IMG/VR virus record: IMGVR_UViG_2703718672_000013
Direction: 5' to 3' (one strand)
Source: a virus
Taxonomy: Duplodnaviria > Heunggongvirae > Uroviricota > Caudoviricetes
Length of the DNA stretch: 12,078 nucleotides
A model generated the notes under the pieces. That model searched no databases and had not been told where the DNA came from. It worked only from the letters and a program-made list of their open reading frames with translations. Below are positions 2,499 to 11,994 of the stretch, in pieces. A program made the translations under genes and the position numbers. The stretch's first letter is position 1. Every line of letters starts with the position of its first letter.

Positions 2499-2690
2499 TT
2501 AAAGTCCTGCCGGTATTTCGTTATTATTAGTGTGAGTAGTTTTATCTACCGGATAACAGTTACCGGGAATTTTTTGTTCTGCTGCTGCAGCCATGCATTC
2601 TTTCATTGAACCGTATAAGCCAGTCACCAGCTCAAGAGATTCGCCGGAAACAAGATAAACTGTCAGAACGAGTGCAAATGTTGTATTCAT
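2499..2690 (-). CDS. YdfD-like small protein (63 aa) with hydrophobic N-terminal segment; Qin-prophage YdfD family, reported lysis-inducing
   Basis: ATG at 2690 overlaps the upstream TGA (ATGA coupling); AAGGA Shine-Dalgarno; N-terminus MNTTFALVLTVYLVSGESL is signal/TM-like; sits directly after the DicB-like gene as ydfD does in Qin. Confidence 0.6.
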   Translation of the reverse strand: MNTTFALVLTVYLVSGESLELVTGLYGSMKECMAAAAEQKIPGNCYPVDKTTHTNNNEIPAGL

Positions 2691-2875
2691 TGTTTATATC
2701 CTTTTTGCAGCAGGTCCAGACGAGCCAGCATTGAAGGAATGCATACTTCATTTAACAGGTCCTGCTCGAGTTTTCTCTGCTTAATGGCGTCTTCAATAAA
2801 TGTTTTGTCTCCAGTGATAACGCCAATTTCGAAACGAAGTTCAGACGTGCTGGCATTACATGATAACTTTTCCAT
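2687..2875 (-). CDS. dicB: DicB-like cell division inhibitor (62 aa)
   Basis: Internal ATG at 2875 with GAGGA 7 nt upstream (the track ORF begins at an upstream TTG). Product MEKLSCNASTSELRFEIGVITGDKTFIEDAIKQRKLEQDLLNEVCIPSMLARLDLLQKGYKQ matches remembered E. coli DicB (62 aa; EIGV, EDAI-KRK, SMLARL motifs). About 180 nt downstream of the DicF-like element. Confidence 0.75.
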   Translation of the reverse strand: MEKLSCNASTSELRFEIGVITGDKTFIEDAIKQRKLEQDLLNEVCIPSMLARLDLLQKGYKQ

Positions 2876-3054
2876 TATCGCGTCCTCAACAATGAATTTT
2901 GTGATGCGGTGCCTGGTGCCTCCAGGTGACGTTAACCAGTTAACAATTAACGCCGGATACAGAGCATTCTCGTTACTCAGCAAATGACCGCTTTACCGAT
3001 TTAACTGTTCCGCGTGCGCTGAGCCGCATTCACCGCATCACAAAATTCACTTTT

Positions 3055-3113
3055 AAAAAAGGGCGGCAGAGCAGTTACGGAGTAAAACTGATACCGCCAA
3101 ATGTCACCAGAAT
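3055..3113 (-). ncRNA. dicF: DicF-like small RNA (ftsZ-targeting sRNA family of Qin/Rac-type prophages)
   Basis: Minus-strand sequence ATTCTGGTGACATTTGGCGGTATCAGTTTTACTCCGTAACTGCTCTGCCGCCCTTTTTT is near-identical to my recollection of E. coli DicF, ending in a U-run; located immediately upstream of the DicB-like gene in the same orientation. Confidence 0.7.
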
Positions 3114-4221: not shown

Positions 4222-4350
4222 TTAGTCGTTAGATTTTGCCGAACTGGAAAGCGCCTGTTTAAACTCACTGAAGCTGAGAGCTTCCTCGCCTTCGGCAAGG
4301 CCTTCGAAGTATTCTTCGTAAGCCTTTTCCATGATTGTGTCGAAATCCAT
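4222..4350 (-). CDS. YdfB/YdaG-like small protein (42 aa)
   Basis: Own translation: MDFDTIMEKAYEEYFEGLAEGEEALSFSEFKQALSSSAKSND; ATG at 4350 follows the upstream TGA by one base; size and position match ydfB (Qin) / ydaG (Rac). Below the track's length cutoff. Confidence 0.6.
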   Translation of the reverse strand: MDFDTIMEKAYEEYFEGLAEGEEALSFSEFKQALSSSAKSND

Positions 4351-4351
4351 A

Positions 4352-4507
4352 TCACTCACCTGAGTTTCTTTCCAGCCAGCGACGGGCACCATTTTCGGTT
4401 TTAAACGTTTTGCTTTTGGTATACGTCATCGCGGTGAATGTACCGTCCTGGTTGGGAAACACGCCGTACACCAGAGATTCGTTGTTGCCAAGATCGATAG
4501 TATCCAT
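4352..4507 (-). CDS. YdfA/YdaF-like DUF1391 protein (51 aa)
   Basis: ATG at 4507 with GAGG 6 nt upstream; MDTIDLGNNESLVYGVFPNQDGTFTAMTYTKSKTFKTENGARRWLERNSGE resembles the 51-aa YdfA/YdaF family; first gene downstream of the OL-like site. The track ORF begins at an upstream alternative start. Confidence 0.65.
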   Translation of the reverse strand: MDTIDLGNNESLVYGVFPNQDGTFTAMTYTKSKTFKTENGARRWLERNSGE

Positions 4508-4693
4508 GTTGACCTCATTTCCCCTTAACGCCGGGTAGCGGAACAAAAACCTGCTGCATAGTTATTAAAGTTGAACCCTGCCGTCATGTTCATACGCCTC
4601 GGGCTGGCTACTTACCCCCTGACCACTGCTTGGTAACTCGAAGTATTGCCCGGCGTTCTGTGGGGCGGGGTGGGTGGTTGGTGTATGTAATCT

Positions 4694-4733
4694 ACAATTA
4701 AAAACTGTTTTTGTGTCAACAGTTTTTAATTGT
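4694..4733. promoter_or_regulatory. OL-like operator: perfect 16-bp inverted repeat (ACAATTAAAAACTGTT / AACAGTTTTTAATTGT) with 8-bp spacer; a consensus TTGACA on the minus strand lies in the spacer
   Basis: Palindrome read directly in the sequence; shares the AAAAACTGT...ACAGTTTTT core with the palindrome at 5730-5766; lies between the repressor-TA operon terminator and the leftward operon. Confidence 0.6.
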
Positions 4734-4741
4734 TGTTTTGG

Positions 4742-4768
4742 GCAAAAAAATCCCTCGAAAGAGGGAGT
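4742..4768 (-). terminator. Intrinsic terminator downstream of the ParE-like toxin gene
   Basis: Minus strand reads a 6-bp stem TCCCTC / GAGGGA with 4-nt loop followed by a 7-U run (plus-strand A-run 4744-4750), 17 nt after the toxin stop. Confidence 0.6.
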
Positions 4769-4784
4769 ATGAAAATTGTTCAAC

Positions 4785-5072
4785 TCAGATAGAGAAGGGA
4801 AATTGTCGCCGAGAATGTGTCACGCTTACAATCTCAATGCTTGAAGCAGCTACTCTGTACAGGATTATGTAGTTAGGGTGGGTCACGATCTCTCTCAATC
4901 CAGAAACCCGTTCGCTTGGTGGATATAAGTACGGATGCTCAGATAGAGGTAATACCGATGTTTCAATGCGTATTTTTAGTCTACGTGCTGCCGGTGGGTT
5001 CTCCTTGGCGATGTAAGTTATGATCTGGCGCAAATCATCGCGAGCAGACGGTAGCCATAAAATGGGTAACAT
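4785..5072 (-). CDS. parE: ParE/RelE-superfamily type II toxin (95 aa)
   Basis: ParE-like pattern W..SA..DL..I..YIA..NP.AA......E....L...P..G........LRE......YI.LYRV....IEIV.V.H.RR; start overlaps the upstream stop (TAATG). Confidence 0.78.
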   Translation of the reverse strand: MLPILWLPSARDDLRQIITYIAKENPPAARRLKIRIETSVLPLSEHPYLYPPSERVSGLREIVTHPNYIILYRVAASSIEIVSVTHSRRQFPFSI

Positions 5073-5263
5073 TACTCGCTCTTGTTAGTTACAGCAATTT
5101 GAGCAATAAGATTTTCCATTTCAGCCATTACCTCGTCATGTGGAATTGCGGGGCGAGTGTCTGCAAGGCTTGACGTTACTTTAGTGCGCAACCATTCGTT
5201 GTAACTGTTTTCTTGTTCGGTAGTTTCGAATTCTGAAACTATCGGAGAAAGGGCTGTACCCAT
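5072..5263 (-). CDS. Small antitoxin (63 aa), PaaA-like partner of the ParE-family toxin
   Basis: GAGGAG Shine-Dalgarno 7 nt upstream of ATG at 5263; 1-nt stop/start overlap with the toxin; 63 aa, acidic; resembles my recollection of PaaA2 from E. coli O157 three-component paaR-paaA-parE systems. Confidence 0.68.
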   Translation of the reverse strand: MGTALSPIVSEFETTEQENSYNEWLRTKVTSSLADTRPAIPHDEVMAEMENLIAQIAVTNKSE

Positions 5264-5290
5264 GGCATAACTCCTCTTCTTGTACTGTGG

Positions 5291-5692
5291 TCACGCCCGG
5301 CGGCTTTTTTGTGCCGCCAGCCACCTAGCAATGGTTTCTTCCATTGATTTTTTCTTGTCTTTGATTTCTTGAAGCATTTTTTCTTGGTCTTCCTCAGGAA
5401 ACGCACTAAAAGCTTGGAGCAGTTCGCGTTGGCGAGGACCAATTTTCATCGTGTCAGGGGTGAAAATTTGCTCACACTCTTCAGGAGGCAATAAAAACCA
5501 ATGCAATGGATGCCCTGAAACCTCAACCAGTTTATCCAAACTTGAGGCTTTAGGTGTAGCCTTACCGCTGACCCATTGTTGAACAGTTTGTTGTGTCACA
5601 CCAATTCTACGGGCAAGCTCAGCCTGGCTCCATCCAGTTTCCTGAAGAAGCTTGCTGATTCTGTACATAGATACTTCTAGGGCGCTCATCAT
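5291..5692 (-). CDS. cI/RacR-like prophage repressor, HTH (XRE family); probably also the transcriptional regulator (PaaR-like) of the downstream toxin-antitoxin pair
   Basis: HTH segment LLQETGWSQAELARRIGVTQQTVQQWVSG; divergent from the Cro-like gene across a palindromic operator; ends 27 nt before the antitoxin. Start uncertain (5692, 5689 or 5668). Confidence 0.8.
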   Translation of the reverse strand: MMSALEVSMYRISKLLQETGWSQAELARRIGVTQQTVQQWVSGKATPKASSLDKLVEVSGHPLHWFLLPPEECEQIFTPDTMKIGPRQRELLQAFSAFPEEDQEKMLQEIKDKKKSMEETIARWLAAQKSRRA

Positions 5693-5729
5693 TATTCAAT
5701 TTTACAGGTAAATACTGTTAAAAGCATCA

Positions 5730-5766
5730 CAATAAAAAACTGTTGATTGCATACAGTTTTTTATTG
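5730..5766. promoter_or_regulatory. OR-like operator: perfect 14-bp inverted repeat (CAATAAAAAACTGT / ACAGTTTTTTATTG) with 9-bp spacer, in the divergent repressor/cro intergenic region; candidate -10 TATAGT at 5778-5783 for the rightward promoter
   Basis: Palindrome read directly in the sequence; same half-site core as the 4694-4733 site; a further ACTGTT copy at 5714-5719. Confidence 0.6.
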
Positions 5767-5800
5767 TAGGCTTTGCTTATAGTTTTTAGAGGAGGGCAAA

Positions 5801-6073
5801 ATGCTAGATAGCACTCGCGAAAAAATTAGGCAGAAATACACTCAGGCTGAAATAGGTCGTTATATGGGGGTCGCTCAACAGACTGTTTGGCAATGGTTTA
5901 GCTTTGGCGTTCCCCCAAAGCAGGTAATTCCGTTATGCCAACTAATGAAGTGGGAAGTTACCCCGCATGAAATCCGCCCAGATATTTATCCTAACCCAAC
6001 CGACGGTTTACCTGTTGGATGTAAGGTTAACACATCAAATGCGCCGGAGTTGATTCATGAAAATCAAGCATGA
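5801..6073 (+). CDS. Cro-like / YdaS-family HTH regulator (90 aa)
   Basis: Strong GAGGAGG Shine-Dalgarno (5789-5795); HTH TQAEIGRYMGVAQQTVWQW; divergent from the repressor; position equivalent to cro/ydaS. Confidence 0.75.
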   Translation: MLDSTREKIRQKYTQAEIGRYMGVAQQTVWQWFSFGVPPKQVIPLCQLMKWEVTPHEIRPDIYPNPTDGLPVGCKVNTSNAPELIHENQA

Positions 6074-6482
6074 ACACATCCGCATGGCGATGAATGCCTG
6101 GGCGCATCCGGACGGCGAAAAAGTACCGGCTGCGAAAATTACCAAAGCGTATTTCGAGCTGGGAATGACGTTCCCGGAACTGTATGACGACAGCCATCCG
6201 GAAGCCATGGCTCGCAATACTCAGAAAATTTTCCGCTGGGTGGAGAAAGACACTCCTGATGCGGTTAAAAAAATTCAGGCGTTGTTACCAGCGATCGAAA
6301 AAGCGATGCCGCCTCCGCTGGTGGCCCGAATGCGCAGCCACAGTTCCGCTTATTTTCGGGAGTTGGTAGAGACGAAGGAACGGCTGGTGAAAGATATTGA
6401 TGATTTCGTTGCATCAGCGATCGTTCTGTTCGATCAGATGAATCGTGGTGGCCCGGCAGGAAACACTCTGGCTGTGCATTAA
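6057..6482 (+). CDS. YdaT-family protein (141 aa; cII-position protein of Rac-like prophages)
   Basis: N-terminus MKIKHEHI is the remembered YdaT start; 17-nt overlap with the Cro-like gene; comparable size. Confidence 0.72.
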   Translation: MKIKHEHIRMAMNAWAHPDGEKVPAAKITKAYFELGMTFPELYDDSHPEAMARNTQKIFRWVEKDTPDAVKKIQALLPAIEKAMPPPLVARMRSHSSAYFRELVETKERLVKDIDDFVASAIVLFDQMNRGGPAGNTLAVH

Positions 6483-9583: not shown

Positions 9584-9653
9584 NNNNNNNNNNNNNNNNN
9601 NNNNNNNNNNNNNNNNNNNNNNNNNNNNNNNNNNNNNNNNNNNNNNNNNNNNN
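9584..9653. other. Assembly gap (70 N)
   Basis: Run of n characters. Confidence 0.99.
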
Positions 9654-11234: not shown

Positions 11235-11781
11235 GCGTTCTCCCCATGAGCATTAAAGGATGCTTAAGATATGCTATGTCACTGATAAAAAATTTGTTGT
11301 GTGTGTTTAGTTATTTTATCTACCTCCATTATGATTTAAGACTGATATATGTTATCAGCAAAGGTACATCGTTATTATTTTACCTGTCAATACATTTGAT
11401 ATTGATTATCGTTTACATCGCTTGCTTAGGAAATTGAAGGCAGGTAACTATCATGTCAATGAACTAACCCACAGTCTAACGTACTTCTTTCCCCAATCAC
11501 CAACAACCAAATTCCTGTTATCACCACTGGGATTTTGGCGCAACTTCATGGTGCAGAGGTAAATAGCATCAAGCAAAATCTCTTTTTCCGTTGTTGTCCT
11601 TATGGGACGTCTGTCTTTCTGACCGATTTCATATTGGCGAGGTAATGGGAAGTTAAGTAGAATAGCTGCGGGTGCTTGAGGCTATCTGCCTCGGGCATGA
11701 ACACCAACGGCAGATAGAGAAAAGCCCCAGTTAACATTACGCGTCCTGCAAGACGCCTAACATTAATCTGAGGCTCAATCT

Positions 11782-11994
11782 ATGAACGGCAAATCTAGGT
11801 TAGCCTCTTACGTGCCGAAAGGCAAGGAGAAGCAGGCTATGAAGCAGCAAAAGGCGATGTTAATCGCCCTGATCGTCATCTGTTTAACCGTCATAGTGAC
11901 GGCACTGGTAACGAGGAAAGACCTCTGCGAGGTACGAGTCCGAACCGGCCAGACGGAGGTCGCTGTCTTCACAGCTTACGAACCTGAGGAGTAA
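11782..11994 (+). CDS. mok-like overlapping reading frame of a hok/sok-type type I toxin locus
   Basis: 70-aa ORF that contains the hok-like frame, the arrangement of mok/hok; GAGG upstream of ATG 11782. Confidence 0.5.
   Translation: MNGKSRLASYVPKGKEKQAMKQQKAMLIALIVICLTVIVTALVTRKDLCEVRVRTGQTEVAVFTAYEPEE
11839..11994 (+). CDS. hok: Hok/Gef-family type I toxin (51 aa membrane peptide)
   Basis: MKQQKAMLIALIVICLTVIVTALVTRKDLCEVRVRTGQTEVAVFTAYEPEE matches the Hok family signature (LTRKSLCEIR...EVAAF.AYE) as I recall it; a 9-bp hairpin lies in the leader (11682-11717). Confidence 0.78.
   Translation: MKQQKAMLIALIVICLTVIVTALVTRKDLCEVRVRTGQTEVAVFTAYEPEE

Follow-up and report, generated by a model that had tools for sequence, protein, structure and literature searches.

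Two perfect palindromes of prophage Sp4 as the probable operator clusters of a lambdoid immunity switch built from 15-bp boxes

In CP-933P (= Sp12), a cryptic prophage of E. coli O157:H7, the proteins PaaR2, YdaS and YdaT are the analogues of CI, Cro and CII (Jurenas et al. 2021, PMC8630535). PaaR2 and YdaS bind the right operator (OR) and repress the rightward promoter (PR), the repressor maintenance promoter (PRM) and the leftward promoter (PL), as seen by electrophoretic mobility shift assay, footprinting and reporters; PRM was activated by low PaaR2, which is octameric in solution (PMC8630535). The paaR2 mRNA is leaderless according to rapid amplification of 5' cDNA ends (5'RACE) and N-terminal sequencing, its start being the A of the ATG. 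PaaR2 begins MQKKE, the intergenic region of CP-933P is 97 bp long and the repeat consensus is GTTTAGTAA (PMC8630535). Here, a stretch of 12,078 nucleotides from a virus of the Caudoviricetes (IMG/VR record IMGVR_UViG_2703718672_000013), referred to as the window, was analysed around two perfect palindromes at 4694-4733 and 5729-5767 that probably belong to a related switch.

Many E. coli O157:H7 chromosomes match the 1.8 kb around the palindromes at 100% identity. In the Sakai annotation the locus is labelled 'prophage Sp4, lambda-like phage' and 'phage repressor protein', and the prophage adjoins yccA. The immunity region was found in 511 of 5426 complete E. coli genomes, O157:H7 included, and a blastn search of a phage collection with the repressor gene and OR gave no match. 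A homologue of the CP-933P system is present in CP-933M (PMC8630535), for which reason we infer that the window locus is most likely paaR1-paaA1-parE1 and that Sp4 is most likely CP-933M. Full-text searches of the literature for the box sequences, paaR1, Sp4 and CP-933M immunity found no study of Sp4 operators. The reading we consider probable is that the palindromes are the left operator (OL) and OR clusters of the lambdoid Sp4 immunity switch, and that they are built from 15-bp boxes that would each bind one repressor dimer by way of a helix-turn-helix (HTH) of the 434 type.

The left palindrome reads ACAATTAAAAACTGTT / TTTGTGTC / AACAGTTTTTAATTGT at 4694-4709 / 4710-4717 / 4718-4733, with perfect 16-bp arms and an 8-bp spacer, exactly as described in the first-pass annotation of this DNA. 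The right palindrome, ACAATAAAAAACTGT / TGATTGCAT / ACAGTTTTTTATTGT at 5729-5743 / 5744-5752 / 5753-5767, is a perfect inverted repeat with the 9-bp spacer reported there; its arms measure 15 bp at 5729-5767, however, and not 14 bp at 5730-5766. The half-site core AAAAACTGT...ACAGTTTTT, claimed earlier for both sites, is common to the two, with AAAAACTGT occurring as an exact match four times in the window, once in each arm of the palindromes. No other perfect inverted repeat with arms of at least 12 and a loop of 3-15 occurs in the window, and any such repeat appeared in 1% of 200 first-order Markov simulations. Both palindromes are beyond chance.

A third related copy of the arm, ACAGGTAAATACTGT, was overlooked in the first-pass annotation and lies at 5704-5718 (5704-5719 according to the repeat finder), 25 bp to the left of the right palindrome. 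All five arm-like elements match ACAR-N7-YTGT, the fuller consensus being ACARTwwwwwAYTGT. In the 12 kb window the pattern occurs five times and no more (1.03 expected), twice at OL and three times at OR, and 25.8 kb of the prophage contain no further copy. With an A/T centre required and at most one mismatch allowed there are six matches against 0.41 expected, a number reached by none of 200 shuffles. The left palindrome consists of box OL1 (ACAATTAAAAACTGT, 4694-4708), which is proximal to PL, as its left arm and box OL2 (ACAGTTTTTAATTGT, 4719-4733) as its right arm. In the right palindrome OR2 (5729-5743) is the left arm and OR1 (5753-5767), within the PR spacer, is the right arm, and OR3 (5704-5718) stands in the PRM spacer. 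Each palindrome can thus be described as a head-to-head pair of 15-bp dyad boxes flanking a -35 hexamer, which would make OR tripartite and OL bipartite. A fourth box, ATAGTTTTTAGAGGA at 5779-5793, suggested by the repeat finder, was dismissed because it differs among the Sp4 variants, overlies the ribosome-binding site and lacks conservation in relatives.

The gene context is that of a lambdoid immunity region. On one side stand the HTH repressor, PaaA-ParE, a terminator and the left site, and on the other the right site, YdaS and YdaT. The 133-aa repressor, the CI analogue (HTH_3, Pfam E 2.3e-12), is encoded at 5291-5692 on the minus strand, followed on that strand by a paaA-type antitoxin gene at 5072-5263 (PaaA2, Pfam E 5.6e-19) and a parE-type toxin gene at 4785-5072 (ParE_toxin, Pfam E 2.9e-17). 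The intrinsic terminator of this operon occupies 4744-4766 on the minus strand (stem TCCCTC/GAGGGA followed by T7), its G+C stem at 4751-4766 abutting OL2. A stem-loop with a T-run is retained at this place in the Sp4 variants L003 and L004 and in the Salmonella locus L006, loci with different upstream genes; the loop reads GAAA or GAAT in different Sp4 variants. Divergent from the repressor gene across a gap of 108 bp is a plus-strand gene of the ydaS family, the Cro analogue, at 5801-6073 (YdaS_toxin, Pfam E 8e-10; recognition helix AQQTVWQ), and next to it is ydaT, the CII analogue, at 6057-6482 on the plus strand. A YdaT site, TTGATTCATGAAAATCAA at 6050-6067, runs from the end of ydaS to the ATG of ydaT and has no mismatch to the described motif TTGATT-N6-AATCAA (PMC9986795). 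This site is probably the analogue of the promoter for repressor establishment (PRE), at which YdaT would turn on leftward transcription of the repressor gene.

As far as sequence can tell, the locus has the divergent repressor/cro-type genes, the three OR operators over PR and PRM and the OL at a leftward promoter of a lambdoid switch. A RecA-stimulated self-cleaving C-terminal domain is missing, and in the Pfam search the 133-aa repressor matched HTH families only, with no peptidase S24/LexA-like domain. The locus also has the parts of a PaaR-PaaA-ParE module, namely a PaaR-type regulator, paaA and parE in one operon, a terminator after parE, and YdaS/YdaT with a YdaT site.

The CP-933P locus (L002), the closest relative that has been studied, recovered by means of a primer sequence from the published work (PMC8630535), resembles Sp4 in its host strain, in the gene order repressor-paaA-parE, OR, ydaS-ydaT, and in the position of PL/OL after the toxin gene. 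The two YdaT proteins are 86% identical and have the same YdaT site, the PL leaders are homologous up to the -10, and the C-terminal 98 aa of the Sp4 repressor are 42% identical to PaaR2. In contrast, the HTH domains cannot be aligned and the YdaS pair is without BLASTP similarity. The 18-bp inverted repeats of the GTTTAGTAA type were not found in the OR and OL of Sp4, nor were ACA boxes found in CP-933P. With non-alignable HTHs and different operators, Sp4 and CP-933P should differ in immunity specificity. By analogy, the Sp4 switch would work like that of lambda and 434; it is a paralogue, of other immunity specificity, of the PaaR2/YdaS/YdaT region.

A protein search with the repressor gave homologues that were 42-81% identical. 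The loci compared were those of Salmonella (L006/L007), Raoultella/Klebsiella (L008/L009), Pluralibacter (L010), Morganella (L013), a metagenome contig (L015), K. michiganensis (L016) and Arsenophonus (L018). When genome contigs were scanned with the repressor alignment, most of the matches listed were unrelated HTH proteins of distant phyla, and L018 was the sole useful locus among them. In all fetched loci the repressor gene is divergent from ydaS, and ydaT comes next in all except L010. Most loci lack paaA-parE, and L006-L010 and L016 carry other genes in its place. The repressor is thus the CI analogue of the prophage, and the toxin-antitoxin pair is cargo. The paaA-parE slot of the Salmonella, Klebsiella/Raoultella and Pluralibacter loci is occupied by unrelated genes of 112-306 aa without a Pfam match, the slot being a variable cargo ('moron') position of the repressor operon, much like rexAB in lambda.

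Upstream of the repressor gene, L006, L008, L010 and L015 have three ACAR-N7-YTGT boxes at the offsets of the window, with a spacing of 24/25 bp (23/25 in L015), and L013 and L018 have two clean boxes and a degenerate one. At the left site every contig reaching that far has two boxes 23-24 bp apart. Counterparts of OL1 were seen in L006, L008, L010, L013 and L018, and counterparts of OR3, at equal offset, in L006, L008, L010, L015 and L018. Position 5 of the OR3 box is G and not T in the window, L006, L008 and L015, which makes it a conserved deviation. A gapless, pattern-free alignment of five loci displayed conservation of CATCAT (the start codons), ATT(T/C)TA, the ACA and TGT ends of the boxes, TGTTGA, and the TA after the last box. 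In this alignment the box centres and six columns within what the first-pass annotation had called the spacer are variable, and both box centres and inter-box spacers vary freely among the loci. Box positions 5 and 11, which lie outside the search pattern, are T in 20 and A in 24 of 27 boxes, respectively, and complement each other across the centre at position 8. The anatomy of the sites and its conservation are matters of direct observation. In Sp4 variants of 97% identity all five boxes, OL1 among them, are invariant, the substitutions falling in the OR1-OR2 spacer (TGATTGCAT changed to TGATTGTGT or TGATCGCGT), and the OL spacer is one T shorter. The assignment of the two palindromes to OL and OR of a single repressor, made in the first-pass annotation, is supported by the lambdoid immunity gene context and by the same layout in seven homologous prophages. 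Alignment with the operators of related prophages, named there as a check, showed that the boxes, their spacing and the promoter overlaps are kept in the relatives and that the long palindrome is lost in most of them.

The first-pass annotation had taken each 39-40 bp palindrome as one operator, with the half-sites AAAAACTGT/ACAGTTTTT, for a single repressor dimer, one per promoter region. Both palindromes are indeed perfect and nearly identical to each other. The OL and OR dyads differ at a symmetric site (A/T at box position 6 in one arm and 10 in the other), and since the difference is matched in both arms each dyad remains perfect; near-symmetry, 14/15, was also found at the OR of L006 and the OL of L013. 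The arm centres are 24-25 bp apart, however, which is more than two helical turns, and the gap from CTGT to ACAG is inconstant, with 10 bp at OL, 9 bp at OR and 9 bp at the OL of the natural variants. A third box is present at 5704-5718. The boxes flanking the -35 in relatives are mutually reverse complementary at only 11-14/15 positions, those of L008, L010 and L015 at just 11-12/15; outside Sp4 the mirror similarity of the pair is no better than the direct similarity, and mirror symmetry is not a trait of the family. The outer ends ACAA / TTGT, moreover, are conserved equally with the proposed core. Because of the spacing, the variable gap, the third box and the asymmetric arms of relatives with their invariant ACA...TGT ends, each arm is best regarded as itself a dyad operator of the form ACAR-N7-YTGT. 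That each promoter region has a single palindromic operator is therefore quite improbable. On this evidence the OL/OR assignment would stay, and the operator unit and the number of operators would need correction.

An alternative role as DNA cruciforms or RNA hairpins, serving for example termination, recombination or replication and not as protein operators, is extremely improbable for the palindromes. Both do fold as hairpins of 15-16 bp, with z scores of -6.0 and -6.7 for DNA hairpin folding against shuffles, and a terminator scan marked the plus strand of 4694-4733 as terminator-like. Of three relatives tested, however, two (L008 and L010) have hairpin potential at background (z = -0.6), with the boxes and promoter elements retained. 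No rightward transcription unit ends at 4733, the operon has its true terminator elsewhere, in the minus-strand G+C stem at 4751-4766, and the stems of the palindromes are almost pure A/T. From the asymmetry in relatives, the background hairpins and the spacer changes in the variants it follows that the long perfect palindrome is a peculiarity of Sp4 and that the box is the conserved element.

Promoters were proposed from this conserved geometry. PR and PL would share one plan, with box 2, a -35 sharing its first T with that box, 3-5 bases, box 1, and a -10 sharing its first T with box 1. The minus-strand TTGACA that the first-pass annotation had put in the left spacer is present at 4714-4719, between OL1 and OL2, and would be the -35 of PL; four of its bases lie in the spacer, but two fall in the right arm (4719 to 4714 on the minus strand). 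GTCAA of this hexamer is kept in five loci. The proposed PL -10, TAGATT at 4689-4694 on the minus strand, shares its first T with OL1 at a spacer of 19 bp (18 bp in the variants L003 and L004); AATCTA directly to the left of OL1 is kept in the Sp4 variants, L006 and L008, and reads AATGCT in L010. The right spacer holds a -35-like TTGATT on the plus strand (5743-5748), which had been overlooked; it would be the PR -35, shares its first T with OR2 and belongs to a TGTTGA that is invariant in five loci. The proposed PR -10, TAGGCT at 5767-5772 on the plus strand, follows after an 18-bp spacer and shares its first T with OR1. A TAnnnT after the box was found in all five aligned loci, including TAGTCT, TATTCT, TAGTAT and TAATAT.

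The proposed PRM -10, TAAAAT at 5699-5704 on the minus strand, shares its A with OR3 and is separated by 6 nt from the ATG at 5692; ATT(T/C)TA-N6-CATCAT is conserved in five loci. The sequence offers no convincing hexamer for a PRM -35, and OR2 is centred at -44 relative to the proposed PRM start. With the -10 six nt from the ATG, the repressor mRNA is predicted to be leaderless. The TAAAAT-N6-ATG geometry is the same as GATAAT-N6-ATG in CP-933P and is kept in relatives. In the E. coli locus L011 (~2985-3001), the annotated repressor start is probably three codons short; an in-frame ATG lies 6 nt from a TAAAAT -10, matches the geometry of every other family member and would make the L011 mRNA leaderless too.

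A PL leader of ~120 bp (window 4560-4680, 'ctgaccactgc..ggtaactcgaagtattgcc..gcgttctgtggggcggggtgggt') is highly conserved among prophages with different repressors and operators, as seen in a comparison with L002 (3070-3250), L006, L010 and L011. Homology of the leader with CP-933P runs to 'gtggggcggggtgggt' and breaks exactly at the start of the left palindrome, at the PL -10, which is a mosaic junction. The leader may be a functional RNA element, e.g. a nut-like one.

The best PDB match of the repressor is the DNA-binding domain of the 434 repressor (E 3.2e-5), ungapped across the HTH (QAELARRIGVTQQTVQQWVSGK aligned to 434 R1-69). Q34, Q35 and Q39 of the repressor align with Q28, Q29 and Q33 of 434, and the recognition helices read TQQTVQQ and TQQSIEQ, respectively. 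Gln28, Gln29 and Gln33 of 434 are said to read base pairs 1-4 of ACAA, reportedly a finding of Aggarwal et al. in 1988. The YdaS proteins of all ACA-box loci have an xQQ(T/S)V helix, and 434 Cro has KQQSIQL; from these related QQ helices the repressor and the Cro analogue would both be expected to read the same boxes. In L014 the repressor helix is SQQTVQR, the YdaS helix is RQQNVSR, and the boxes at the OR2 and OR1 positions, ACACAATTATTGTGT and ACACGTTTTTTGTGT, have the form ACAC-N7-GTGT. In L011 the helices are AQQSVQK and PQQVVSR, and the boxes end in GTGT and are only half regular (x-N7-GTGT half-matches). L014 is the single clean case of covariation between helix and box.

The 434 operators, read from OL657226.1, are ACAAGAAAAACTGT, ACAAGATACATTGT and ACAAGAAAGTTTGT for OR and ACAAGGAAGATTGT, ACAATAAATATTGT and ACAAACTCCATTGT for OL. 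As in Sp4 they start with ACA(A/G), end with (C/T)TGT and have an A/T-rich centre, 434 OR3 (ACAAGAAAAACTGT) being nearly the Sp4 box minus one base, and a tripartite OR overlaps PR and PRM in both. Unlike the boxes of Sp4 and its relatives, which are all 15 bp with an N7 centre, the 434 operators are 14-bp ACAA-N6-TTGT sites. The 434 repressor has a LexA-like self-cleaving C-terminal domain, whereas that of Sp4 is of the PaaR type. Sp4 further differs in that its Cro analogue is of the YdaS family, in that its OL has two boxes where 434 OL has three, and in being without an N/nut-type annotation.

The possibility that the boxes are read only by YdaS, or by an autoregulating PaaA-ParE complex, with the 133-aa protein binding elsewhere, was also weighed. 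YdaS too has a QQ-type helix, and a homologous repressor occurs in E. coli GF60 without any boxes. An abstract of Hallez from 2010 is said to describe the CP-933P operon as co-regulated by PaaR2 and the PaaA2-ParE2 complex, which would speak in the same direction. Boxes and architecture persist, however, in loci without paaA-parE, the repressor helix of L014 covaries with box position 4, and the repressor aligns with the DNA-binding domain of 434, whose operators start with ACA. We judge this alternative very unlikely.

Several points weigh against the repressor-box reading favoured here. A generic consensus promoter scan of the window called none of PR, PL and PRM, the -10 hexamers TAGGCT (PR) and TAGATT (PL) are weak, and the spacers are 18-19 bp. 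Because the boxes were collected with the pattern itself, their counts at positions 1-4 and 12-15 are circular, and the pattern-independent evidence consists of the gapless alignment and box positions 5 and 11 only. The E. coli GF60 locus (L005), whose repressor is 62% identical and has a similar helix, contains no ACA-N9-TGT box within 4.4 kb. In L016 the inner half-sites of OR1 and OR2 each carry one mismatch, and in the L011 boxes only one half-site each fits the pattern. With 15 bp against 14 bp, the 434 analogy permits no simple transfer of geometry. Finally, the boxes do not explain why Sp4 alone keeps perfect dyads of 39-40 bp. Selection for a symmetric tetramer site, gene conversion and chance are the candidate causes of the symmetric OL/OR difference between the dyads.

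In GF60 (L005 1997-2801, NZ_CP172185.1), paaR2-like and paaR1-like genes are in tandem upstream of paaA-parE, and the operators are of the CP-933P type. The second, paaR1-like repressor has no visible target at L005.

In the Qin prophage the dicBF operon is controlled by DicA and DicC. DicA, a short repressor that is not cleaved, is under the control of an antirepressor; it shuts down both dicCp and dicBp and stimulates its own weak promoter (PMC10448788, PMC3441716). With 135 aa it resembles the Sp4 repressor as a short, non-cleavable CI analogue, and Qin and Sp4 both have an operon ydfA-ydfB-...-DicF-dicB. DicA (NF007257) is also the best NCBIfam match of the Sp4 repressor, over the full length (E 8.4e-14); the score of 51.5 bits is nevertheless under the family cut-off of 101, and unlike Sp4, Qin is without paaA-parE cargo. 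The DicA operator Oc, TTGTTAGTCATAACTAACAA, was not found in the window. To the left of the terminator are ydfA (4352-4507) and ydfB (4222-4350) on the minus strand, a hypothetical gene, the DicF small RNA (3061-3112, minus strand; Rfam RF00039, 76.9 bits) and dicB (~2687-2875, minus strand). Given these positions, the proposed PL would drive a dicBF-type operon of cell-division inhibitors like that of Qin.

By analogy with lambda, 434 and CP-933P, the switch may be depicted as follows: Repressor dimers on OR1/OR2 and OL1/OL2 would bracket the -35 hexamers, fill the promoter spacers and occlude RNA polymerase. Silencing of PR would keep ydaS, ydaT and the replication genes off, and silencing of PL would do the same for ydfA-ydfB-...-DicF-dicB. 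Repressor bound at OR2, centred at -44, may activate the -35-poor PRM. OR3 would be the last box that the repressor occupies and, at high repressor levels, the site of negative autoregulation; YdaS would prefer this box and thereby shut off PRM. The C-terminal domain is common with the octamer-forming PaaR2, and cooperative pairs and an OL-OR loop over ~1.03 kb are plausible.

If this account is correct, the Sp4 switch controls the ParE toxin and PaaA antitoxin and the prophage replication genes, and it would be a second, heteroimmune example beside CP-933P of short non-cleavable CI analogues building bistable switches. The Q/K/R series at helix position 7, set against box position 4, would be a natural series usable for studies of protein-DNA specificity. 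In a broader and rather doubtful reading, Sp4-type repressors re-space the 434 code onto an odd 15-bp operator, and a change of Q39 to K/R, in repressor and Cro partner alike, alters the specificity for base pair 4 and so yields new immunity types, the Sp4 dyads having been selected for a symmetric dimer of dimers, built through the octamer-forming PaaR-type C-terminal domain, that clamps the -35 from both sides and loops OL to OR over ~1 kb. Judged against the literature searched, the switch opens no new class of mechanism and would be an ordinary variant of the known phage genetic switch that had not been characterised before.

Elsewhere in the window, a masked sequence of 70 N is present at 9584-9653. 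At the right edge a sok antitoxin RNA (RF01794, 105.6 bits) lies at 11670-11844 on the plus strand beside a hokD-type gene, the two constituting a second toxin-antitoxin system of the prophage, of type I.

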